Counted from the stretch's first letter, positions 4,989 through 24,000 are shown. The stretch is DNA of 24,000 nt from an uncultured Acidobacteriota bacterium (GCA_963800455.1 CAWDAY010000004.1:2684593-2708592), one strand, 5' to 3'. Program-made: numbers and translations. The notes: generated from the sequence alone by a model not told the origin.

Positions 4989-6257
4989 ATGCTCACCCAA
5001 TCGAAGCTATGGAAGAAGGTACTCGCAATTCCACTCGCGTTTTGCGGCGTGTTGGCGCTGCCGGCGCTTTCGCAAGCGCAAGCCGTGCCGCACTATAAGT
5101 TCGATCCCGAATGGCCCAAACTCCCTCTGCCCAACAAGTGGTGGATGATGGGCGTCACGGGATTGGCCGTGGACAAGGACGATAACGTCTGGATCCTGGA
5201 TCGTCCGCGCGACATCGACGCCACACAGAACTATGCGCAGCTAAATCCTCCCACCGCCGAATGCTGCGTCGCGCCGCCGTCGATGATCCACATTGACAAA
5301 GCCGGGAACGTGATCGGTTCCTTCGACCCGCCGGAAGGGCATGGCATGGCGGTGGACAGCAAGGGCTTCGTCTACATCGGCAACTCCGTCAACAAAATGA
5401 ACACGGTCCGCAAATACGATCCCCAGACCGGCAAGGTCCTTGCCGAAATACCCAGGGTTCCGGAGAGCCAGCCGGGCGGCGGTGGAGGTGAAGGCGCACC
5501 CGAGGCTGCAGCGGGCGCTGCGGCTCCAGGCGGGGCCGGTCCGGTCGCGTCCGCAAGGAACGCGGCGGGAGGACGCGGCGGCAATCTCGATCCGGCTGCG
5601 CGGGCAGCGGCGATCGCAGCCTTCCGCGCCAAATATCCCCCGACGACGCCGATGATCGTGGGCCAGATCGAAGAGGTTCGGATCGACGAGCCGGCTCACG
5701 AAATTTATTGCGCTGACAGCTACCTGGGCGGCCGCGTAATGGTATTTGACTTGGACACCTTCGCATTCAAGCGGGGTTGGGGCGCCTACGGGCACCCCCT
5801 GTCGGAAATCACGACCGATGACAAAGACCGCGAATACACTCCCGGTGGCCCGGAACCCAAGGAATTCCGGAACCATCTCACGCTGAATATATCCAACGAT
5901 GGATTGGTTTACGCAGCGGATCGGGGGGCCAACCGCATCGATGTCACCACGAAGGAAGGCAAGTTCGTCAAGGAGTTCCTTCTGGCCACGCAGACTGGCA
6001 ATCGCGGCTCCGCCGGTGGTGTCGCTTTCTCGGCAGATCCGAAGCAGCGTTTCCTGTTTATCTCGGATATTTCGAACAACACGATCTGGATCCTCAGCCG
6101 GGAGGACGGAAAAGTGTTGGGCCGAATCGGCAGCGCGGGCGATTACGGCGGCCAGTTCCACGGCCTTCACATGATCGCCACGGACTCGAAGGGCAACATC
6201 TATACCGGCGAGGTGCAGGCTGGCGAACGCGTCCAGAGGTTTCTCCTGGCAAAGTGA
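4989..6257 (+). CDS. Exported NHL-repeat beta-propeller protein (peptidylglycine alpha-hydroxyglycine lyase-like family)
   Basis: 422 aa with a signal peptide (VLAIPLAFCGVLALPALSQAQA). Repeated NHL-like blades are present (GLAVDKDDNVWILDR; GMAVDSKGFVYIGN; NDGLVYAADRGANRIDV; FLFISDISNNTIWIL; ATDSKGNIYTGEVQAGERVQRF). GGAGTAGAGAG SD upstream. Antisense ORF 5241..6431 is a shadow. Confidence 0.85.
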   Translation: MLTQSKLWKKVLAIPLAFCGVLALPALSQAQAVPHYKFDPEWPKLPLPNKWWMMGVTGLAVDKDDNVWILDRPRDIDATQNYAQLNPPTAECCVAPPSMIHIDKAGNVIGSFDPPEGHGMAVDSKGFVYIGNSVNKMNTVRKYDPQTGKVLAEIPRVPESQPGGGGGEGAPEAAAGAAAPGGAGPVASARNAAGGRGGNLDPAARAAAIAAFRAKYPPTTPMIVGQIEEVRIDEPAHEIYCADSYLGGRVMVFDLDTFAFKRGWGAYGHPLSEITTDDKDREYTPGGPEPKEFRNHLTLNISNDGLVYAADRGANRIDVTTKEGKFVKEFLLATQTGNRGSAGGVAFSADPKQRFLFISDISNNTIWILSREDGKVLGRIGSAGDYGGQFHGLHMIATDSKGNIYTGEVQAGERVQRFLLAK

Positions 6258-15284: not shown

Positions 15285-16604
15285 TTATATCCGTGGCATT
15301 AACTCCAGTTCGCGGATGTACTCGACAACAGCTTCACTCCAGCCGTCGATGTGCGTCCATGGACCGTAGCCGACACCGTTCTTGTTACTGGCAACGTTGA
15401 TCACATAGCCGCGGCCTCTCGGCCCCGGCACATGATCGTGGGCTTGTTCGTCTGTGATCACGATGATCCGGTCATAATTGTCCCGAATCTGTTCGAGCGC
15501 ACGGCCGAGGTAGGTTGCACTATGCGGCTGGCTCGCATCCAGCGCATCGCGCAACGCAAACCCTCGCCGCTGGGGCACCTCGACCAGGTTGTCCGAAAAC
15601 GTGAATGTGATCGCTTTCTCGCAAACTTCCCGGAGCAGAATGGCGAGGCCATATGCCGCGTCAGTTCGGAGCATCTCCGACCGGCGAGACAGCGCGGCCA
15701 TCATGCTGCCCGAAACGTCTACGAGAAGAACAGTTCGCCCGGGCAGTTTTTCCTGCGCCTTGAGCGAAGCAAGCATGGCCCGCTCGAGGGATTCCTCCCA
15801 CTGAGGCGCAAATCGCGCCGCAGCGAGAAAACGAAACGGCAGGACGCGTCCCGTCTTCATGGACTCAATGCCATCCACCACGAGAGATTCGTCTACGCCC
15901 GCCTGCTTCATGTTTCGCAGGTTACGAAGGAGTGCAAGCCCGCCGAGTTTTCGTTCGCGGAGCAACCGTTCCCATGCCTCACGCTTATCGGCACCGGAAG
16001 AGAGCGCCACCTCCCAGGTGTCGGGAGTTTGCAGCTCTCCTTCGATCAGCCGCTTCCACAGCGCGCTCTGTTCCGCGTCACGCGGCTTCCCGTGGCAAAG
16101 GAACAGAACGTCACGGAGACGAATCGGCCCGCTGCGGTCATACTTGGCGAGCTGGTATTCGTCGAATTTGCGGAAAGCCTCGGCCAGCCCTTTCTTCGCT
16201 TGGGCGGAGAGGGGAGCTTTGCCATCCTTCCAGTAGATTGCAACGAATTCCGCAAGTTCGTCCGCGCGCTGGATCACCTGTACAAGCGTGCGCGAAACAA
16301 ATTCGCGGTGCGTCTTCAGGCGCGCTATTTCACGAACGAGCAGTAACGGAGCGTGCCGAAGTTTCATCTTGGTTCGTGCCTCGACGGCAAGTAACGCTAC
16401 AATCTCGGCTTTCACCTTCGGCACGAGCGACTGAATGCGGCCGGCGATCTCCACTCCGTCCTCATAGAATTGGTCCTCCCACAGCAAGCATGCGAGCACC
16501 GATCGCCGCAATTGAAGCTCGGGGGAAATATTTCGCGCAGGAGCTCCTTCGTGCGTGCGAGTCCCCCACGGAAACGGAATTTTCAAGATGTTCAGTCGTG
16601 CCAT
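15285..16604 (-). CDS. rsr: Ro60 ortholog Rsr (TROVE domain + vWA domain)
   Basis: 439 aa with a strong SD (AAAGGAAAGGAGG). The TROVE-like HEAT-repeat N-region includes EDQFYEDG, RHAPLLLVRE, LRDVLFLCHGKP and LLRNLRNM. The C-terminal vWA has a MIDAS motif (LLVDVSGSM). It sits in a locus with rtcBA, rtcR and Y-RNA-like units. Confidence 0.9.
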   Translation of the reverse strand: MARLNILKIPFPWGTRTHEGAPARNISPELQLRRSVLACLLWEDQFYEDGVEIAGRIQSLVPKVKAEIVALLAVEARTKMKLRHAPLLLVREIARLKTHREFVSRTLVQVIQRADELAEFVAIYWKDGKAPLSAQAKKGLAEAFRKFDEYQLAKYDRSGPIRLRDVLFLCHGKPRDAEQSALWKRLIEGELQTPDTWEVALSSGADKREAWERLLRERKLGGLALLRNLRNMKQAGVDESLVVDGIESMKTGRVLPFRFLAAARFAPQWEESLERAMLASLKAQEKLPGRTVLLVDVSGSMMAALSRRSEMLRTDAAYGLAILLREVCEKAITFTFSDNLVEVPQRRGFALRDALDASQPHSATYLGRALEQIRDNYDRIIVITDEQAHDHVPGPRGRGYVINVASNKNGVGYGPWTHIDGWSEAVVEYIRELELMPRI

Positions 16605-16633
16605 TGTGTCCTCCTTTCCTTTGCCAAATTCAA

Positions 16634-16784
16634 TCGTCGGGGAATTGGTGGCAACGGATGCAGCCTAGGCTGCCGATTGCTCTACCTTCTGAGCTACACG
16701 GAGCGACCGCGAGGTGGATCCGAGGCAGGAGTCGAACCTGCGACCCATCGATTAGAAGCAACCGTCACCTGCGCCACCGACGAA
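16634..16784 (-). ncRNA. Y-RNA-like unit Y5 (YrlA-like): closing helix plus circularly permuted tRNA-like module
   Basis: Minus-strand RNA: the 5' UCGUCGG-UGGCG... pairs with the 3' ...UUCC-CCGACGA. Internally, the T-arm GCAGG-UUCGACU-CCUGC (16741-16725) PRECEDES an imperfect acceptor-like helix closed by a loop. This is followed by GUA + D-arm GCUC-AGAAGGUA-GAGC (16694-16679), then the hairpin GCAGC-CUAG-GCUGC. It ends 30 nt before the rsr ATG. Boundaries are approximate. Confidence 0.6.
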
Positions 16785-16811
16785 TTCTGTATTGCTCGTT
16801 GTTCAAGATCT

Positions 16812-16967
16812 TTCACCGGGGAAAATCGGACACGGGGCTTTTCTGTGCGGTTTCCCGCATTGAGCTACCCCGACGATCGGGAGCAGGAGTTGAACCTGCA
16901 ACCTCCCGCCGCTCTCGCGACGGGCGCTCTACGTCATTGAAGTATCCGTGTCTTTCGCCACCGGCGA
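16812..16967 (-). ncRNA. Y-RNA-like unit Y4 with tRNA-like module (T-arm, GNRA-capped arms)
   Basis: The 5' UUCGCCGG-UGGCG-AAAGACACGG pairs with the 3' CCGUGUC-CGAUUUUCC-CCGGUGAA. Internal order: GUAGAGC, then an 8-bp hairpin CCCGUCGC-GAGA-GCGGCGGG (16924-16905), AGGUU, T-arm GCAGG-UUCAACU-CCUGC (16899-16883), hairpin CCCGA-UCG-UCGGG, GUAGCUCAA, and hairpin UGCGG-GAAA-CCGCA (16859-16846). It starts 5 nt after the stop of the 108-aa ORF. Confidence 0.55.
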
Positions 16968-16971
16968 ATTG

Positions 16972-17298
16972 TCATCGTGAGTTTTCATCCAGGATGAGCG
17001 CGATTTTTTCGCTGCTATTTTCGGTTTCATCGAGACACACGAAGCCCGCGTCCCGCTTCAGTGCGACCTTGTCCAGAACGATGGCGATTTCTTCCATTTC
17101 ATCGAACGTTGGCTTGTTCTTCTCGATGTACGCGGTGCATGCGCGCACGGAAAAGTGCATCCGCCGTTGCGGCCACAATGCCTGGCACACGACGACCAAT
17201 TCGGTCTCGCCGTATCCCCGCGCACTGAAAGCTCGCGAACACGATTCGCACAAAGATGGTCCGTTGACGGGAGTCCCGTTCTTCACATAGATGCCCAT
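16972..17298 (-). CDS. Hypothetical 108-aa protein (CxxC plus two further Cys), embedded in the Y-RNA array
   Basis: ATG at 17298 is preceded by AGGAGGTAAATC (strong SD). The protein reads MGIYVKNGTPVNGPSLCESCSRAFSARGYGETELVVVCQALWPQRRMHFSVRACTAYIEKNKPTFDEMEEIAIVLDK..., with an acidic C-terminal tail. It has the same strand and tight spacing as the flanking operon elements. I recognise no family. Confidence 0.6.
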   Translation of the reverse strand: MGIYVKNGTPVNGPSLCESCSRAFSARGYGETELVVVCQALWPQRRMHFSVRACTAYIEKNKPTFDEMEEIAIVLDKVALKRDAGFVCLDETENSSEKIALILDENSR

Positions 17299-17380
17299 GA
17301 TTTACCTCCTTTCCAAGAAGCGTGAATATTGCGCCTCTGAATCCGCGAGAAATCCTGCACGGCCTTTTCTCGGAAAAATA

Positions 17381-17545
17381 TTCGCCGGGGAACAAGCGCC
17401 CAGGGTTGTCTCAAGGCGGTTTTCAGTAGGTGCCTTGTCCTTCGGGACTACGCCCCCGCCCCTACTGCTTCCTTATCCTTGGCAGGATTTCCGGTCCTGC
17501 GCGACGTTGGCGGAGGAAGTAACCCTCGACTACGCCACCGGCGAA
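17381..17545 (-). ncRNA. Y-RNA-like unit Y3 (no canonical T-loop; different effector module)
   Basis: The 5' UUCGCCGG-UGGCG-UAGUCGAGGGUU pairs with the 3' AACCCUGGGCGCUUG-UUCC-CCGGCGAA (perfect 8-bp closing helix plus GGGUU/AACCC). Internal hairpins are GCAGGA-CCGGAAA-UCCUGC and CAGUAGG...GUCC-CGAA-GGAC...CCUACUG. Confidence 0.45.
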
Positions 17546-17551
17546 ACTTAT

Positions 17552-17661
17552 GGCCAGGGAAAATCAGGCACGGCGATATTGGGGATTCGAACCCCGCCGC
17601 TTTTCGCTTGAGCAAAGAGCGGTCTTCGCCCGAGAAGTATCCGTGTCTTACGCCACTGGCC
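17552..17661 (-). ncRNA. Y-RNA-like unit Y2 (contains a consensus T-arm)
   Basis: The 5' GGCCAG-UGGCG-UAAGACACGG pairs with the 3' CCGUGCC-UGAUUUUCC-CUGGCC. Internally there is a 10-bp arm CGCUCUUUGC-UCAA-GCGAAAAGCG followed by the T-arm GGGG-UUCGAAU-CCCC (17595-17581). It shares the exact 16-mer AAGACACGGAUACUUC with Y4 (forward coordinates 17634-17649 and 16939-16954). Confidence 0.5.
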
Positions 17662-17668
17662 GCTTGAT

Positions 17669-17741
17669 CCTGGGGGAATGACCGTCTACGGTCTTTTTTG
17701 TCGAGTGACAGTCGATGAAATCGCAGACTGCGCCACCCAGG
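17669..17741 (-). ncRNA. Y-RNA-like unit Y1 (short, 73 nt)
   Basis: The 5' CCUGGG-UGGCG-CAGUC... pairs with the 3' ...GACGGUCA-UUCC-CCCAGG. Internal hairpins are CAGUC-UGCGAUUUCAUC-GACUG (17730-17709) and GACCG-UAGA-CGGUC. Confidence 0.4.
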
Positions 17742-17976
17742 TTCAAAAAATTGGAACTAGCAAAGAATTGATGTGAAAGAAGATAGCTATCGCGAGGGAC
17801 CGGACCACGTTCGGACACAATCCCGGCCCAGCATCAATCCCGCTTGCCGATCCATCGAATTGTGTTTGCGATGCTGCATTCCGAACATTCTCCAGAGCCG
17901 CGAATTCTAGATGAATTTCTCGTTTTGCGCAATAGTAAATATTCGATGCCAGAGTCAGATATTTCGGCGGCATCAT

Positions 17977-19014
17977 TCAAGTCGCTGGACTCACCTCGAC
18001 TCTCGTACACCCACTTTCCTCGCGAGTCTCGAAACAAACAGGTAAGAAGGTGGATACGACATCCATATTCGTCCGAGCGTGCCGGTTCAACTTCGAAGCC
18101 GTGAACACTCCGCCGCCCGCCAAAGCAAAAGGGAGCAATAGTTGATCGGCCAAATGCTCGCCGACCGCAGCTGCAGACGCAATGTAAGCGCGCGCTTCCT
18201 TGACGGCCTCCGTTGCGACGCTTTCGGCGCTTGCCCCGAGCCGGCCAAATCCGCAGAACAGTTCCGTCATCCCGGTGGATGTTCCCACTTCGATCAACAC
18301 GACGTTTCCCGGCCCGACAGAATTCCTGGTTTCGACGATTCGCATGCATTTGTTGTCCCAATTCAGCAAGTGCGCAACAGTGTCAATCTCGCGGCGTGCA
18401 ATGGCGGGAGACAAGTTCGCGACGATTGCCAATACACTCCGACGAGTGATTTCGCCGCGCTCTATCATGTCAGTCGGCGACAAGTGTTCGGACGGCTCAA
18501 CAGTCGCAGTGAAGCATCCGCCTCCTACGGGATAGAAGCCATATCGCTCCAGATTCACACTTACTTTCGGTCCGAGCCTGTTAATGACTGGCAAAAAGCA
18601 CTTCTCAAGAAAATCAAAGGGAGGTGCCGCCTGATTGTGTGTACCGCCCTCAATCGTGATTTGGCTCGGTCCAGACGACATCATCAGAGCCGGCAAGATC
18701 GTTTGAAATACGAGTGTGCTGCTCCCAGCCGTTCCGATGACGAAACGGTGCTTCCCCGGTCGTACAGTTCCGGGAATAAAGGTAAGAGTCTTCGATCCGA
18801 GAGTCGCGCCTTCGACTTTTGCCTCTCCAACTTCGGATGCAGCGAGAACCGCCGTAAGGTGTTGCCTTAGCAAACCTGGCCGTTCCCGCTTCGCCCGGAT
18901 GTTTTCAATGCGGAACGCTTTTCCGGTTGCGAGCGACAGGCTGAGCGACGAGCGCAGAATCTGTCCGCCGCCTTCGCCCGAAGATCCATCGATCCGAATC
19001 ATGTTCCGCTCCAT
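17977..19014 (-). CDS. rtcA: RNA 3'-terminal phosphate cyclase RtcA
   Basis: 345 aa, collinear with E. coli RtcA: IRIDGSSGEGGGQILRSSLSLSLATGKAFRIENIRAKRERPGLLRQHLTAV..., GTAGSSTLVFQTILPAL, AAVGEHLADQLLLPFALAGGG, and the His-containing segment NRHARTNMDVVSTFLPV. It starts 10 nt after the rtcB stop. Confidence 0.95.
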   Translation of the reverse strand: MERNMIRIDGSSGEGGGQILRSSLSLSLATGKAFRIENIRAKRERPGLLRQHLTAVLAASEVGEAKVEGATLGSKTLTFIPGTVRPGKHRFVIGTAGSSTLVFQTILPALMMSSGPSQITIEGGTHNQAAPPFDFLEKCFLPVINRLGPKVSVNLERYGFYPVGGGCFTATVEPSEHLSPTDMIERGEITRRSVLAIVANLSPAIARREIDTVAHLLNWDNKCMRIVETRNSVGPGNVVLIEVGTSTGMTELFCGFGRLGASAESVATEAVKEARAYIASAAAVGEHLADQLLLPFALAGGGVFTASKLNRHARTNMDVVSTFLPVCFETREESGCTRVEVSPAT

Positions 19015-19024
19015 TTGCCTTCAG

Positions 19025-20254
19025 TCATCCTTTAACGCACACAACTTGGTGCAACGTATGAACGATTTCCACCAAGTCGGCCTGCGCCGCCATTACAGCC
19101 TCGATCGACTTATAGGCGGCTGGAGTTTCGTCGATCACGTCTGCGTCCTTCCGGCACTCTACGCCGGCAGTCATGCGTTCGTGATCTGCTACGGAAAATC
19201 GCCGCTTTGCTTCGCCACGAGACATCGCACGACCCGCCCCGTGACTACAGCTTTGGAAACTTTCCGGGTTACCCTTGCCGCGAACGATATAGGAACGCGC
19301 CCCCATGCTGCCGGGAATGATCCCCATATCGCCTTCGCGCGCACGGACCGCGCCTTTTCGAGTGACCAGAACATTCTCGCCGTAGTGCGACTCCCGTGCG
19401 ACGTAGTTGTGGTGGCAATTAATCGCCTTCAACTCCGCGACGAATGGTCGCACTTCACTCGAAGAACGGACGGCAGCAACAATTTGTTCCATCATCAGAT
19501 GCCGATTCCAGCGAGCGTAATCTTGTGCCCACTCGACTGCCGCGACGTAGTCATCAAAGTGTTCCGAATGCTCCGGGAAATAAGCCAGATCACGATCGGG
19601 CAGATTGATGAACATTCGTTCCATATCTTTTCGGGCGAGCTCGATGAAGTGGCTGCCCATTCGATTGCCCACGCCGCGTGAGCCACTATGCAGCATGAAC
19701 CACACCGCATCCGATTCATCGAGACACACTTCGATGAAGTGATTCCCGGTGCCCAGCGTGCCCAAGTGATTCGAGTGATTTCCTCGATCGAGCTTGGGGT
19801 GCTTTTCGAGAATCGTGTCATACCGCGGCTTTAGCGTTTGCCAAACGTCCAGCGTGCGCGCCGGGATGTCATTCCACGCCCCTCGATCGCCTCGGCCACC
19901 GTGGTTCGTTCGGCCATGAGGTACGGCCTTCTCAATCGCTTCGCGAACGCCCTTCAGAGTTTCCGGGAGGTCGCGCGCGTTGAGATCCGTTTGTACGGCC
20001 ATCATGCCGCAACCGATGTCGACGCCGACCGCAGCCGGGATAATCGCGCCCTTGGTCGGGATCACGCTGCCAATCGTGGCGCCCACGCCCCAGTGCACGT
20101 CCGGCATCGCAGCAACCCATTTGAAAACGAACGGAAGTTGCGCGACGTTGACAAGCTGTTGGCGCGCCTGGTCCTCTAAGGCGACGCCCTTGGTCCACGC
20201 CTTGATGGGTATGCCCTTCTCAGGAACAATGACGTTATAAGTTGTCTCGGACAT
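19025..20254 (-). CDS. rtcB: RNA-splicing/repair ligase RtcB
   Basis: The start is set at ATG 20254 (MSETTYNVIVPEKGIPIKAWTKGV...) with GGAGGAG SD, giving 409 aa. It is collinear with E. coli RtcB (KMWTKGV, MPDVHxGxGxTIGSV, HSGSRGxGN, INCHHNY). The track start at 20410 would place the sigma54 promoter inside the CDS. Confidence 0.95.
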   Translation of the reverse strand: MSETTYNVIVPEKGIPIKAWTKGVALEDQARQQLVNVAQLPFVFKWVAAMPDVHWGVGATIGSVIPTKGAIIPAAVGVDIGCGMMAVQTDLNARDLPETLKGVREAIEKAVPHGRTNHGGRGDRGAWNDIPARTLDVWQTLKPRYDTILEKHPKLDRGNHSNHLGTLGTGNHFIEVCLDESDAVWFMLHSGSRGVGNRMGSHFIELARKDMERMFINLPDRDLAYFPEHSEHFDDYVAAVEWAQDYARWNRHLMMEQIVAAVRSSSEVRPFVAELKAINCHHNYVARESHYGENVLVTRKGAVRAREGDMGIIPGSMGARSYIVRGKGNPESFQSCSHGAGRAMSRGEAKRRFSVADHERMTAGVECRKDADVIDETPAAYKSIEAVMAAQADLVEIVHTLHQVVCVKG

Positions 20255-20393
20255 TGTCGCTCTCCTCCATTTCAGAACTCTTGGTCCCGTGAGGCGCGGA
20301 GTACATTGTCCCCCGCGCCTCCCTCGGTTCGCGATTCCCACATCGCTCGCGAACTTCCCGCTCGCTTTTTTATCGTCTCTGGCGAGATATAAA

Positions 20394-20409
20394 TGCAGGC
20401 CACGTGCCA
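20394..20409 (-). promoter_or_regulatory. Sigma54 (-24/-12) promoter of the rtcB-rtcA-Y-rsr operon
   Basis: The minus strand reads TGGCAC-GTGGC-CTGCAT against the consensus TGGCAC-N5-TTGCW, with GG and GC at canonical spacing. It lies ~140 nt upstream of the rtcB ATG and between the divergent rtcR and rtcB genes, as expected for RtcR-dependent operons. Confidence 0.75.
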
Positions 20410-20517
20410 ATCTCGATGGCGAAGGTAAGGCACTGCGACTAAGGGAGATACCACCGGGAACCTCCGAAAGAAACTCGATGCGACGATCCCATAAGATACG
20501 ATATTATAAATATAGAT

Positions 20518-22116
20518 ATGCCGGACAAGCCACATGTCGCGATCGGCCTATTGGGCACGACCCTTGACGCGGGCCGCTCGCAGGATCGCTGGTCGAGTTG
20601 GCGGCCAACCGTTGCCATCTGCATGCAACCGGACTTTGTGATTAAGCGCTTGGAACTACTGCACGGATTACGTGACAAGACCCTGGCCCATCGCATCGTG
20701 AGCGACATATCAGCCGTCTCACCCGAAACATCCGTGAAGCTGCACGAAATCGAATTTGGCGATCCCTGGGACTTCGAACGTGTATACGAGACCCTTTTCA
20801 AGTTCACACGCGGCTACCCGTTTGACACGGATAACGAGGAATACCTGATCCACATCACGACGGGTACGCACGTTGCCCAGATCTGTCTCTTCCTGCTAAC
20901 AGAGTCTCGATACCTGCCGGGAAAATTGCTTCAGTCCGCCCCCGAACGCGATAGGAAGGCGCCTGGAAACATAAAAATAATCGACCTGGATCTTTCCCAG
21001 TACGACCGCATTGCTTCGCGATTTCGTCAGGAAGCGCGTGATGCAGTCTCTTACCTGAAGGGAGGAATCGATACAAAGAACGCTGCGTTCAACCAACTCA
21101 TTGACCGGATCGAACAGGTTGCCATCGCCACTCGAGACCCACTTCTCCTGATGGGTCCCACGGGAGCCGGCAAATCGAGGCTCGCCCGAAGAATCTATGA
21201 GTTAAAGAAAATGCGCCACACAATCACAGGAGAGTTCATCGACGTAAACTGCGCGACACTTCGAGGCGACGGGGCGATGTCCACGCTCTTTGGACACGTG
21301 AAGGGAGCCTTTACCGGAGCGCTCAAGGATAGACCCGGAGTCCTTCGGGCCGCAGATAAAGGAATGCTATTTCTGGACGAAATCGGAGAGCTTGGAAACG
21401 ACGAGCAAGCGATGTTGTTGCGGGCTCTGGAAGAGAAAACTTTCCTGCCGCTTGGATCGGACCGTGAAGCTCACAGCGATTTCCAAATGATTGCGGGAAC
21501 GAACCGCGACCTACTCTCAGCCGTCCGGGAGGGCCGCTTTCGTGAGGATCTTCTGTGTCGAATCAATTTATGGACGTTTACATTACCGGGCTTGAGGTCG
21601 CGTCCTGAGGACATCGAACCCAACCTGCAATTTGAGCTAGACCAATTCGCGCAGCGCACTGGCCATCGTGTAACCCTCAGTAAAGAGGCCCGCGAGGCTT
21701 TCCTTCGTGCCGCGCTCGCCTCGTCAGCAAAGTGGACTGGCAATTTCCGTGATCTGAACGCCGCGGTCGTCCGGATGGCCACGTTGGCACAAGGCGGACG
21801 AATTTCCGTTGAGATTGTTGAAGAAGAAATCGAAAGGCTCAAGGCGACTTGGGCGGCACTCGAAGAACAAGAAGAATCGGATGGCCTTCTTACTCAAATT
21901 CTAAGCGCAAAAGCGCTCGACCATATCGACCTGTTCGACCGAGTTCAGCTTGCTCGTGTGATTCAAGTTTGCCGCGATTCACGTTCGATGTCGGAAGCTG
22001 GCCGTCAATTATTCGACGCCTCGCGAACGCGCAAGACAAGTACGAATGATGCGGATCGCCTACGCAAGTATTTAGGCCGATTTGGAATCGAATGGGATCA
22101 AATTGTGAGAGCGTGA
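20518..22116 (+). CDS. rtcR: Sigma54-dependent transcriptional activator RtcR (CARF sensor domain + AAA+ + HTH)
   Basis: 532 aa, collinear with E. coli RtcR from end to end. Shared segments: VAIGLLGTTLD...WRPTVAICMQ...LELLH...ISAVSPET...DPWDFERVY...YLIHITTGTHVAQICLFLL...IIDLDLSQY (CARF-type N-domain), GPTGAGKS Walker A, GHVKGAFTGA sigma54-contact loop, and NDADRLRKYLGRFGIEW at the C-terminus. Confidence 0.95.
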   Translation: MPDKPHVAIGLLGTTLDAGRSQDRWSSWRPTVAICMQPDFVIKRLELLHGLRDKTLAHRIVSDISAVSPETSVKLHEIEFGDPWDFERVYETLFKFTRGYPFDTDNEEYLIHITTGTHVAQICLFLLTESRYLPGKLLQSAPERDRKAPGNIKIIDLDLSQYDRIASRFRQEARDAVSYLKGGIDTKNAAFNQLIDRIEQVAIATRDPLLLMGPTGAGKSRLARRIYELKKMRHTITGEFIDVNCATLRGDGAMSTLFGHVKGAFTGALKDRPGVLRAADKGMLFLDEIGELGNDEQAMLLRALEEKTFLPLGSDREAHSDFQMIAGTNRDLLSAVREGRFREDLLCRINLWTFTLPGLRSRPEDIEPNLQFELDQFAQRTGHRVTLSKEAREAFLRAALASSAKWTGNFRDLNAAVVRMATLAQGGRISVEIVEEEIERLKATWAALEEQEESDGLLTQILSAKALDHIDLFDRVQLARVIQVCRDSRSMSEAGRQLFDASRTRKTSTNDADRLRKYLGRFGIEWDQIVRA

Positions 22117-22135: not shown

Positions 22136-24000
22136 CTAATTCACGGAGAATAGCGTAGGCTCCACGACAGCCTGCGCTTCGGGATTGTAGTAGTCGTACA
22201 AGGTCGAAGGAGGTGTCACGGCTTTCAACCCGAAACGCGGCTTAAACGTAAAAGAAAACTTCGTGCCCCCTGCGTGCGGCCAGAGATAAACGACCATTCT
22301 GTCCGGCAACACTTCGTACTGGTTGATGTCCCATCCGGATTCCTTCATTGCCGTCTCGACCGAGCTTCTGTCCACTTCCGCGCCGGGTGGCAGGCCGATT
22401 TCGGCCAGCATCATTCCGTAACCTCGAAATCCAATTCTCTCGGCTTCGACACTGCATCGAGTGCTCTCCCCCACCTTGGCCGACGGGCTCTCGTAGTGGA
22501 CTCGCAGCCGCAAAGTGTCCGAAGATTTGTCTTCGTGCTGGAAGTCTTCCTCCTTTGCGGTCTGGACCCAGGGCACATAGTAATCCGAGATCAATTGGAG
22601 CGACGCCTGTGCGGATCCTGCGCCACGGCGAATTTCCAGATGATGTGGTCCCGGGGAAATAAATTTCGATATATCGGCCGTGACCGGGGCGGTCAGTTCG
22701 TCGGGACTCGGCATGTTAATGGTTAAGGTCTGACGACCGTCGACCAGGATCGACGCTACGAGGTTCGCCTTTGACGAAACGCCCGGTCCGCTCGTCGTCC
22801 TTGGAACCGTGAACGAATGGATTGCATCCAGGACGTTCACAGTCGCCTGCGTCGAGAACCAAATCCCGAATCGATCTTGATTACGAAGCAGAAAAAGCAA
22901 ACCCCGGGACACGAGTGGATCGGCCACTGTATTGTTATCCGATGCTTTCTCAAACGCTTGCAGCACGATCGCGGTCGTTTCGACTCGTCCAGTTAGCCCC
23001 CATCCATAGAAGGGCGTATTGGTCTCAAGAGACCAGTAGCTGAAGTTGCCTTCGCGATGTTCCAGTTTCCGCAGCCTCTCAAGACTTTCAGTGACACGAG
23101 GCTTGTCTCCCACATAGAACGACGCGAGCGCGTAGGACGCGATCAGATAGGGCTCATCGTAAGAGCTGGCTTGCTTTTCCAAATAACCGAGCGCTCGCGC
23201 GACTGCCGTCGATGCCGCTTTGGATAAACGTGCGTTTTCTGCGGGATCAGCCACCGTGACTTTTGTTGTGGCAATGACCCGTGCGATATATGCGGTCAAG
23301 ACAGCCGTCCGGTGCGCGTCTTCTGGTCCGCCCCAGGTGGTCGCGATCCAACGACCGTCGTCCTGCTCGTGGTGCAGCAGCCACGACAGATTTCCCTGGG
23401 CGATAGAATCATCGACGTTTGTGAACTCACGTGCTTCACTTAGAAATTTCATGGCGTAGGCAGTCAGCGCGGGATCGGAATCACCTCTACCCCAATACGT
23501 GATTCCTCCATCAGGGGCTTGATAAGAGAGCAGCCGCCCGTAGCCGAGTTCCACATACCGCTTCGCGCGGGCGACAACGGTCGGTGCGGCACCCCGCGCG
23601 TCTTTGGTGTATTGCAGAAGCAAGAGGCTCGGATAAGCCGACGAAATTGTTTGTTCCGCGCAGCCGTAAGGACGGCCCAAAATCCCCTCGACACTTTCGA
23701 GGACGTGAGCATTCAGGTTCGGATAGATCTTCAGTGTGCCTTCAAGAGACCCGGGAATCGTGTTATCCGGAATCCGGATGTCCACGCCTGCGGAGTCTCC
23801 GAAGATTTGGCTGACCGTCTCGACGTGTTCTTCTCCGTTCGGTCGAACGGTGACCGTTCGCTCGATGGCGTCGCCCGCATCTGCGCCACTCGCGACGATT
23901 CTTTGCTTCCCGTTCTTGATCGGCGCGGTCGCATGGAATTTGAACACTTCGTTCTTGCTGTCGCGTGCAGGGACGGTAGTCTTCACAGAAGTCGGACTCA
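22136..24000 (-). CDS. Alpha-2-macroglobulin family protein with thioester motif; C-terminal ~620 aa only (N-terminus beyond the right edge)
   Basis: It contains GRPYGCAEQTISSAYPSLLL (CxEQ thioester site) followed by the alpha-helical TED-like region and a C-terminal receptor-binding-like beta domain. The track start at 23986 is a GTG inside an ORF that stays open to position 24000. Confidence 0.85.
   Translation of the reverse strand, partial: SPTSVKTTVPARDSKNEVFKFHATAPIKNGKQRIVASGADAGDAIERTVTVRPNGEEHVETVSQIFGDSAGVDIRIPDNTIPGSLEGTLKIYPNLNAHVLESVEGILGRPYGCAEQTISSAYPSLLLLQYTKDARGAAPTVVARAKRYVELGYGRLLSYQAPDGGITYWGRGDSDPALTAYAMKFLSEAREFTNVDDSIAQGNLSWLLHHEQDDGRWIATTWGGPEDAHRTAVLTAYIARVIATTKVTVADPAENARLSKAASTAVARALGYLEKQASSYDEPYLIASYALASFYVGDKPRVTESLERLRKLEHREGNFSYWSLETNTPFYGWGLTGRVETTAIVLQAFEKASDNNTVADPLVSRGLLFLLRNQDRFGIWFSTQATVNVLDAIHSFTVPRTTSGPGVSSKANLVASILVDGRQTLTINMPSPDELTAPVTADISKFISPGPHHLEIRRGAGSAQASLQLISDYYVPWVQTAKEEDFQHEDKSSDTLRLRVHYESPSAKVGESTRCSVEAERIGFRGYGMMLAEIGLPPGAEVDRSSVETAMKESGWDINQYEVLPDRMVVYLWPHAGGTKFSFTFKPRFGLKAVTPPSTLYDYYNPEAQAVVEPTLFSVN

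Follow-up and report, generated by a model that had tools for sequence, protein, structure and literature searches.

A soil-bacterial RNA-repair locus with five Y-RNA-like genes, a conserved structured RNA and a conserved small Cys4 protein

We analysed a stretch of 24,000 nucleotides (nt) of DNA from an uncultured Acidobacteriota bacterium (GCA_963800455.1 CAWDAY010000004.1:2684593-2708592), referred to here in its full length as the window, with a focus on the genes located between positions 15,285 and 22,116. They form an RNA-repair locus of a soil bacterium, encoding RtcB and RtcA together with a Ro60-type protein, and include five Y-RNA-like genes. Read on the minus strand, a predicted sigma54 promoter is followed by rtcB, rtcA, a structured RNA that we call SP, three Y-RNA-like units (U1-U3), an open reading frame (ORF) of 108 amino acids (aa; ORF108), two further units (U4 and U5) and rsr, with rtcR encoded divergently (Table 1). 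Apart from SP, this layout had been described in an earlier note made from the sequence, and both the Pfam domains and our own reading of the sequence agree with it. What the note had taken for a spacer of about 230 nt between rtcA and the RNAs is in fact a region of 235 nt (17742-17976), which holds conserved promoter-like boxes and, as its central 103 nt, SP. Judged from the sequence, the locus probably comprises more than a single sigma54-dependent unit.

The units U1 to U5 were delineated with a stem descriptor (G[TC]GG[CT]G, 40-200 nt, T[TC]CCC, at least six flanking pairs), with which both strands were scanned. The minus strand gave exactly five units and the plus strand none, compared with a mean of 0.35 units per 24 kilobases (kb) and a maximum of 3 in Markov shuffles of the sequence, and the coordinates match the span of 16634-17741 for which five Y-like RNAs had been claimed. 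All units share the closing stem GGUGGCG…UUCCCC, the 5' and 3' ends of each are paired together in the predicted fold, and this fold is retained with 2-11 compensatory pairs in alignments of 15-23 orthologues (for U1, 24 pairs among 17 orthologues, 2 of them compensatory). Sister loci whose proteins are about 90% identical agree at 85-99% of the positions in the RNA units (U1 92-99% in the close sister loci) versus 67-75% at third codon positions in rtcA and rsr; the conservation of the intergenic segments, on which the earlier note had made its reading depend, is thus present. Y RNAs are generally defined by a terminal stem of the 5' and 3' ends and an internal loop, with a length of 80-130 nt (PMC4201824), a range that three of the five units exceed (73, 110, 165, 157 and 150 nt for U1 to U5). 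All of them are located on the minus strand, 29-1140 nt upstream of rsr, and the published criterion for finding YrlA genes is a location on the same strand as rsr at a distance of at most 4 kb (PMC4201824). The array is tightly packed around its protein genes, with U4 starting 3 nt past the ORF108 stop codon and U5 ending 29 nt ahead of the rsr start.

The units differ in their tRNA-like arms, which are complete in U5, partial in U4, reduced to a T-arm in U2 and missing in U1 and U3. Hence, the tRNA-like modules previously assigned to the last two units are present there, and only the restriction to these two does not hold, as U2 also carries a T-arm. In U5, GCAGGUUCGACUCCUGC, the AS hairpin and GUAGCUCAGAAGGUAGAGCA follow each other in that order, and the succession of T-arm, AS hairpin and D-arm is invariant in 20 homologues. 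When the Rfam model of YrlA was run in E-value mode on 1.7 kb, all 114 model positions aligned to U5 (38.9 bits, E 1.3e-6) and the tRNA-like core aligned to U4 (23.9 bits, E 0.03); sub-threshold YrlA matches also flank ORF108 homologues in other loci. YrlA RNAs feature a GNCGAAN0-1G motif near the 5' end and a YUAY element (Chen et al. 2014, PMC4201824). The motif is exact in U4 (GGCGAAAG), reads GGCGAAGG in most U5 orthologues and GGCGCAGG in the U5 of the window, and is altered by one base in U1-U3 (GGCGCAG, GGCGUAAG and GGCGUAG), and UUAC or AUAC, related to YUAY, follows. More generally, the 5' modules of the units are paralogous, with the pattern (C)CGGUGGCG-N-A(A)G…GG(U/A)UACUUC, and every 3' strand contains UU(U/C)CCC. 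Stem, 5' motifs, T- and D-arms, sub-threshold YrlA similarity, covariation and conservation taken together support the assignment of all five predicted units as Y-like. The resemblance of the shared 5' module to the acceptor and D-arm start of tRNA-His hints at a tRNA origin.

To describe SP, we used a covariance model, R1, that was built from 18 copies. It recognises SP at 65-119 bits in the window as well as in 34 fetched loci (individual loci are designated by L-numbers), and in each case SP lies 5' of the ORF108 gene and on its strand. In these loci, including those without rsr or rtcA, SP is located upstream of all ORF108 homologues with an identity of at least about 42%, and it is still 72-78% identical ahead of homologues that share just 42-60% of their protein sequence. 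In the SP alignment 94% of the cells are paired, versus 25-46% with the partners slid, and 16 cells have changed on both sides compared with 5.1 in shuffles, in an alignment which was fitted to the model and is hence biased towards structure; in the apical helix the sequence varies and the pairing stays. No Rfam family matched SP at E ≤ 10, and R1 run with filters off gave no significant match in the distant ORF108 groups. Three other candidates in this region were rejected: an ORF of 77 aa filling it (17743-17976, minus strand) is interrupted by stops within SP in 11 of 20 loci and by 1-nt indels, so that SP is non-coding; a second sigma54 promoter is unfit in its spacing, judged by eye; and the SP tail is not complementary to the sequence it would need to pair with as an anti-Shine-Dalgarno element.

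Upstream of SP, the pattern TTGC-N17-TAnAnT is found in register in 14 diverse loci that are preceded by unrelated genes, among them rtcA, rtcB and a MacB/FtsX gene. The boxes end 8 nt ahead of SP in the window and, across loci, 7-8 nt ahead of where the terminal helix begins. From this we infer that they are likely to represent an internal promoter of the sigma70 type. A terminator scan returned nothing between rtcA and SP and nothing after SP.

ORF108 is located inside the array, between U3 and U4. It has 67 homologues at 48-94% identity, and a profile search retrieved 1358 clusters (50% identity) at E ≤ 1e-3. Four cysteines, C17, C20, C38 and C54 (CxxC … C … C), are invariant in 86 sequences of the family and invariant or nearly so in a sample of 50 sequences of the wider family. 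By these sequence criteria ORF108 is a real gene belonging to a large family, and its product probably binds zinc. Sequence searches with ORF108 against Pfam, NCBIfam, PHROG and PDB gave no match, the same was true for tblastn searches with ORF108 and a phage-type homologue against GenBank phages, and close relatives were not found in IMG/VR. Within the 60 nt before the start codon, most of the bacterial members shown, even at a protein identity of 35%, carry a hairpin of variable stem sequence followed by a UAGAAAGG stretch, which in the window corresponds to a ribosome-binding stretch, UUGGAAAGGAGG, abutting the hairpin. This leader hairpin could serve as a 5'-end stabiliser or as a binding site.

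Table 1 Features of the RNA-repair locus, in the order of their position in the window, and tRNA-His genes of sister loci.
Feature	Position	Strand	Description and evidence
Stem-loop	15244..15275	-	Just past rsr stop, GC-rich, no U-tract; read from sequence
rsr	15285..16604	-	Divergent Ro60/TROVE protein, 439 aa; Pfam TROVE (HEAT-repeat ring) PF05731, 66.8 bits (cutoff 23)
U5	16634..16783	-	YrlA-like RNA, complete T, AS and D arms; stem descriptor, 20-homologue alignment, consensus fold
U4	16812..16968	-	YrlA-like RNA, GGCGAAAG, T-arm, AS hairpin, partial D-arm; stem descriptor, 7 compensatory pairs
ORF108	16972..17298	-	Conserved Cys4 small protein, 108 aa; 67 homologues, invariant cysteines
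Leader hairpin and ribosome-binding stretch	17305..17337	-	Hairpin 17337-17317, abutting UUGGAAAGGAGG; conserved before most bacterial ORF108 homologues shown
U3	17381..17545	-	Y-like RNA, no tRNA-like arm; stem descriptor, 11 compensatory pairs in 23 sequences
U2	17552..17661	-	Y-like RNA with T-arm (GGGGUUCGAAUCCCC), no D-arm; stem descriptor, 5 compensatory pairs
U1	17669..17741	-	Short hairpin-type Y-like RNA; stem descriptor
SP	17793..17895	-	Conserved structured RNA, 103 nt, four-helix rod, invariant GUCCC tail; covariance model R1
Sigma70-type promoter-like boxes	17904..17932	-	TTGCGC (17932-17927), 17 nt, TAGAAT (17909-17904); conservation
rtcA	17977..19014	-	RNA 3'-phosphate cyclase; Pfam RTC PF01137, 254 bits; RTC_insert, 58.9 bits
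rtcB	19025..20254	-	RNA ligase, 409 aa; Pfam RtcB PF01139, 438 bits
Predicted sigma54 -24/-12 promoter	20394..20409 (20409->20394)	-	TGGCACgtggcCTGCA; read from sequence
rtcR	20518..22116	+	Sigma54 activator with RtcR (CARF-like) N-terminal domain; Pfam RtcR PF06956, 271 bits; Sigma54_activat PF00158, 161 bits
tRNA-His	L004 7674-7748; L022 4673-4747; L028 4674-4748; L039 477-551		Between U2 and U3 in sister loci

A survey of neighbourhoods, which the earlier note had proposed as a check, recovered the order of the window together with ORF108 (rtcR<>rtcB-rtcA-…-ORF108-…-rsr) in at least 12 metagenomic contigs. In the genome records, the relatives are labelled as Terriglobales, Acidiferrales and Acidobacteriaceae, and also as Verrucomicrobiia and Baltobacteraceae. 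Nine architectures were seen around ORF108, and in six of them it stands beside rtcB and/or rsr with Y RNAs. Besides the window type (A, rtcBA-…-ORF-…-rsr), these are rtcB-SP-U1'-ORF-patatin with a divergent Lhr helicase (B), SP-(Y)-ORF-(YrlA-rsr) between MacB/FtsX and Mla genes (C, with an intact rsr in L042), the window type with an extra ORF of 266 aa in the array (D, L040/L041), SP-ORF-150 nt-rtcB (E) and Y-Y-YrlA-ORF-Y-rsr, in which the ORF identity is about 40% (F). Architectures G and H have no rtc genes or rsr, and CutC/GH47, or an aminotransferase and an M29 peptidase, are encoded there instead (G with a tandem paralogue); architecture I occurs on jumbo-phage contigs. Since ORF108 adjoins rtcB or rsr in six arrangements, we argue for a functional link, and the earlier suggestion that the Rtc/Ro60/Y-RNA system is remodelled here and includes at least one uncharacterised component is supported by a conserved ORF108 that recurs beside these genes. 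In one locus (L010, 6420-6792) rsr is reduced to fragments downstream of ORF108 and in three loci of the same synteny (L009, L065 and L066) none of it is left, with SP and ORF108 intact, which suggests that in loci of architecture C rsr was lost and the SP-ORF108 pair was kept.

The junction of U2 and U3 is variable among the sister loci. A genuine tRNA-His gene (GTG anticodon, encoded G-1) lies there in four sister locus types and none in the window, and in L040 (3936-4736; also in L041) the same position is occupied by the ORF of 266 aa, which has no Pfam match. As the junction holds a tRNA in some loci and a gene in others, the array tolerates insertions at this site. Aligned by eye, the 5' module of U3 (17520-17545, GGUGGCGUAGUCGAGGGUUAC) and the start of the tRNA-His of L004 (7673-7700, GGUGGGCGUGGUCUAGCGGUUAA) are alike at about 20 of 26 positions.

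Some further observations concern the relatives of ORF108. In the rtcB-SP-ORF111 variant (L001, 8572-10641; also L002 and L038), the next gene encodes a patatin-like phospholipase of 689 aa, and an Lhr-type helicase gene is divergent from rtcB. In one distant group, a tandem paralogous Cys4 ORF was found just upstream of the ORF108 homologue in L013 (about 5540-5935), L059, L061, L050, L049, L054, L057 and L058; in this group (L054/L059) the preceding region starts with CUUGGAGAAUCCCAUGAUUGUGCGCAAA, a tentative resemblance to the 5' half of SP in a segment that R1 does not score. Distant members in jumbo-phage-like IMG/VR contigs of 176 and 180 kb (L067/L069 and L070) are located near genes for DNA polymerase A, NADAR and GTP cyclohydrolase I.

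The genes rtcB and rtcA are encoded on one strand with 10 nt between them, and the sigma54 element upstream of rtcB is spelled TGGCAC-N5-CTGCA; with the relaxed pattern TGGYAY-N5-YTGCW it is found again, at an unchanged position, in 10 sister loci. The true start of rtcB is the Met at 20254 (residue 53 of the listed ORF, MSETTYNV), and the homologues are likewise called with 409 aa, so that the ORF beginning at TTG 20410 (19025-20410) was discarded as a mechanical artefact, over-extended by 52 codons (20255-20410) across the sigma54 promoter. The Rsr protein matches PHROG 850 (E 1.8e-47), and its top PDB match is the Ro60 of the Thermus phage phiLo (9KOP/9L5Y, E 7e-33, residues 13-435); the C-terminal vWA domain of Ro60 (PF25045) gave a weak match of 23.8 bits, below the cutoff of 27.7. 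By sequence comparison we regard Rsr as a divergent Ro60-type protein rather than a Salmonella-type equivalog. The stem-loop past rsr, at which the terminator scan made no call, is possibly the 3' end of the transcription unit.

Taking these results together, we consider it likely that the locus consists of two units arranged head to tail, the rtcBA operon and a transcript with SP, the Y-like RNAs, ORF108 and rsr, in which the RNAs are processed and bound by Rsr and ORF108 and SP form an accessory pair. The former would be a standard RNA-repair operon under control of RtcR and sigma54. The latter would start from its own promoter-like element, 45 nt past the rtcA stop codon, and run as one packed transcript through SP, three Y-like RNAs, ORF108, two YrlA-type RNAs and rsr. 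The gaps between its parts amount to 3-82 nt and leave no room for separate promoters, which makes one processed precursor the simplest reading. It would imply that the RNAs are cut from a polycistronic transcript by analogy to Yrn2-tRNAAsp-Yrn1 of D. radiodurans, a reading that matches the Deinococcus precursor as well as the tRNA-His in the sister arrays. As in other Ro60 systems (PMC4201824; PMC12135203), Rsr may bind the shared GGUGGCG(N)A(A)G / UUCCCC stem, and the varied internal modules (none, a T-arm only, or a full tRNA-like domain) could give rise to several Rsr ribonucleoprotein particles. Because there is no terminator between rtcA and SP, read-through from the sigma54 promoter can add to the internal one; RtcR, on sensing damaged RNA, might in this way raise the level of the downstream transcript, for which the internal promoter would provide basal expression. 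ORF108 and SP would act as an accessory pair in the same pathway of RNA repair or RNA quality control, and with modest confidence we take ORF108 for a zinc-binding RNA-binding protein and SP for its cognate RNA or regulatory leader. A bolder version, which we hold to be doubtful, is that SP and ORF108 form an unrecognised ribonucleoprotein module with its own promoter and a conserved pre-start hairpin, which would constitute a third arm of bacterial RNA repair and quality control beside RtcB and Ro60/Y RNA and also act independently of Ro60; the pair occurs on contigs labelled Acidobacteriota, Verrucomicrobiota and Eremiobacterota.

Several results weigh against the two-unit proposal or its parts. 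Rsr scores only 21.3 bits with the enterobacterial Rsr equivalog of NCBIfam (NF041674, cutoff 900), and a scan with the strict sigma70 consensus does not call the boxes ahead of SP. The covariance-model check for YrlA, likewise suggested in the earlier note, was positive for U5 and U4 in terms of E-value, with both scores staying below the gathering score of 69. The AlphaFold2 model of ORF108 has a mean predicted local distance difference test (pLDDT) score of 60 (core 66-80) with 86 sequences and of 45 with 28, and Foldseek found nothing at E < 1 for it in PDB and BFVD. The distant relatives of ORF108 (G-I) stand in unrelated contexts with neither rtc nor rsr nearby, which shows that the family as a whole extends beyond this pathway, and the pair of SP and ORF108 is retained in the three loci without rsr. 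Finally, all loci were fetched via ORF108, so that the sample covers SP only in the company of this gene.

Among other explanations, the one that we take most seriously, while leaning against it, regards SP as a mere cis-acting 5' leader of ORF108, be it riboswitch-like, an attenuator or an autoregulatory site for the ORF108 protein, and not as a stable RNA partner of its own. It would account for the invariable position of SP on the same strand as and 5' of an ORF108 homologue, for its distance of only 130-270 nt from the start codon in loci without Y units, for the second conserved hairpin abutting the ribosome-binding site of ORF108 and for the lack of a terminator after SP. However, the window has about 500 nt between SP and ORF108, taken up by three Y-like RNAs, and in L040 a gene for 266 aa is inserted in addition, adding up to about 1.4 kb in all, distances at which a local structural control of translation is unlikely; moreover, the first nucleotide of SP lies right at the base of its terminal helix and just past the -10 box, which is typical of free-standing small RNAs. 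We consider it unlikely that ORF108 and SP are an independent module that is no more than a neighbour of rtc and rsr in some lineages and has no role in RNA repair or with Ro60. The housekeeping and phage contexts of distant family members would fit such a module, as would the persistence of the pair where rsr is decayed (L010) or absent, but this view is hard to reconcile with six arrangements beside rtcB or rsr with Y RNAs, on contigs labelled Acidobacteriota and Eremiobacterota and down to an ORF108 identity of 40%, or with the location of ORF108 within the array, where the spacing of 3 nt to U4 points to a co-transcription with the RNAs.

Very improbable, in our estimate, is the idea that the five units represent processing signals or decayed repeats that derive from tRNAs, and not functional Ro60-binding Y RNAs. 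It is true that neither ARAGORN nor Rfam at gathering thresholds called any unit in the window, YrlA being visible only in E-value mode, that U3-U5 (150-165 nt) exceed the 80-130 nt of characterised Y RNAs (PMC4201824), and that the 5' modules are similar to the beginning of tRNA-His. Against such a decay, the position, the stem and the compensatory pairs of every unit are kept across 15-23 orthologues, the units are better conserved than third codon positions, and U5 aligns with YrlA over its full length (E 1.3e-6); in addition, the units are located at less than 1.2 kb from rsr and on its strand, such proximity on the same strand being the criterion used for YrlA genes (PMC4201824).

Compared with known systems, the locus can be set beside the RtcR/sigma54-dependent rsr-yrlBA-rtcBA operon of Salmonella enterica. 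Common to both are RtcR, RtcB, RtcA and Rsr, the divergent rtcR and the sigma54 promoter, and both encode Y RNAs on the strand of the operon, including one of the YrlA type that has a tRNA-like domain (PMC7790460, PMC4201824). In contrast to Salmonella, the order here is rtcBA, RNAs, rsr, there are five Y-like units instead of two, an internal promoter-like element, SP and ORF108 are added, and Rsr is only distantly related. In D. radiodurans, five small RNAs are encoded upstream of rsr (Yrn1, Yrn2 and RNAs a, b and d), and Yrn2-tRNAAsp-Yrn1 forms one precursor (PMC4201824). This locus is alike in its several small RNAs on the same strand upstream of rsr, in the precursor with a real tRNA and in the T-arms of some RNAs (PMC4201824), with the transcripts of the window being predictions from DNA; it differs in having no rtcBA linkage, no protein gene in the array and no SP-like RNA, and its tRNA-like module has another orientation. 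The phage phiLo, whose Ro60 is the nearest solved relative of the Rsr of the window (9KOP, 9L5Y), has two Y-like RNAs (Yrl1/Yrl2) with a CGAA motif upstream of the gene (PMC12135203), but the gene belongs to a phage, no rtc genes accompany it, there are only two RNAs, and neither ORF108 nor SP is reported. With respect to Rfam YrlA (RF02553), U5 is alike over the T, AS and D hairpins and U4 over the tRNA-like core, whereas the units of the window are set apart by an additional hairpin and by a terminal stem that is longer, paired throughout and has a conserved UUCCCC as its 3' strand.

Operons of Rsr, Y RNAs and RtcBA, species with several Y RNAs, tRNA-like modules and co-transcription with tRNAs have already been published. 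The inverted gene order, the five units and the intercalated gene, which had led the earlier note to call the layout unusual, are all present; given the multi-Y-RNA arrays of Deinococcus and the tRNA-His in four sister types, order and number of units are modest novelties only, variations on a published theme. New, according to a comparison with a part of the Ro60 reviews, are a protein gene conserved in the array, SP with its promoter-like element, and the persistence of the SP-ORF108 pair without Ro60. The roles of bacterial Ro60/Y-RNA particles and the reason for their frequent linkage with RtcB are an open question in the field (PMC7790460). In this type of locus, Y-RNA paralogues with no, a partial or a full tRNA-like module form a natural series, and ORF108 and SP are two conserved candidates that track rtcB and rsr through rearrangements; both are handles for pull-down and deletion experiments. 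It also illustrates that 'spacers' in such operons can conceal promoters and structured RNAs.

The remaining genes of the window have the appearance of ordinary chromosomal genes. In L013 (1316-1372, minus strand), an Acido-Lenti-1 RNA scored near the threshold (34.4 bits, gathering 37), unrelated to the locus. The neighbour of rtcR in the window (22136-23986, minus strand) is an alpha-2-macroglobulin-like gene (TED_complement, A2M_recep), which is also present in the sister loci L004, L005, L022, L025, L028 and L032.

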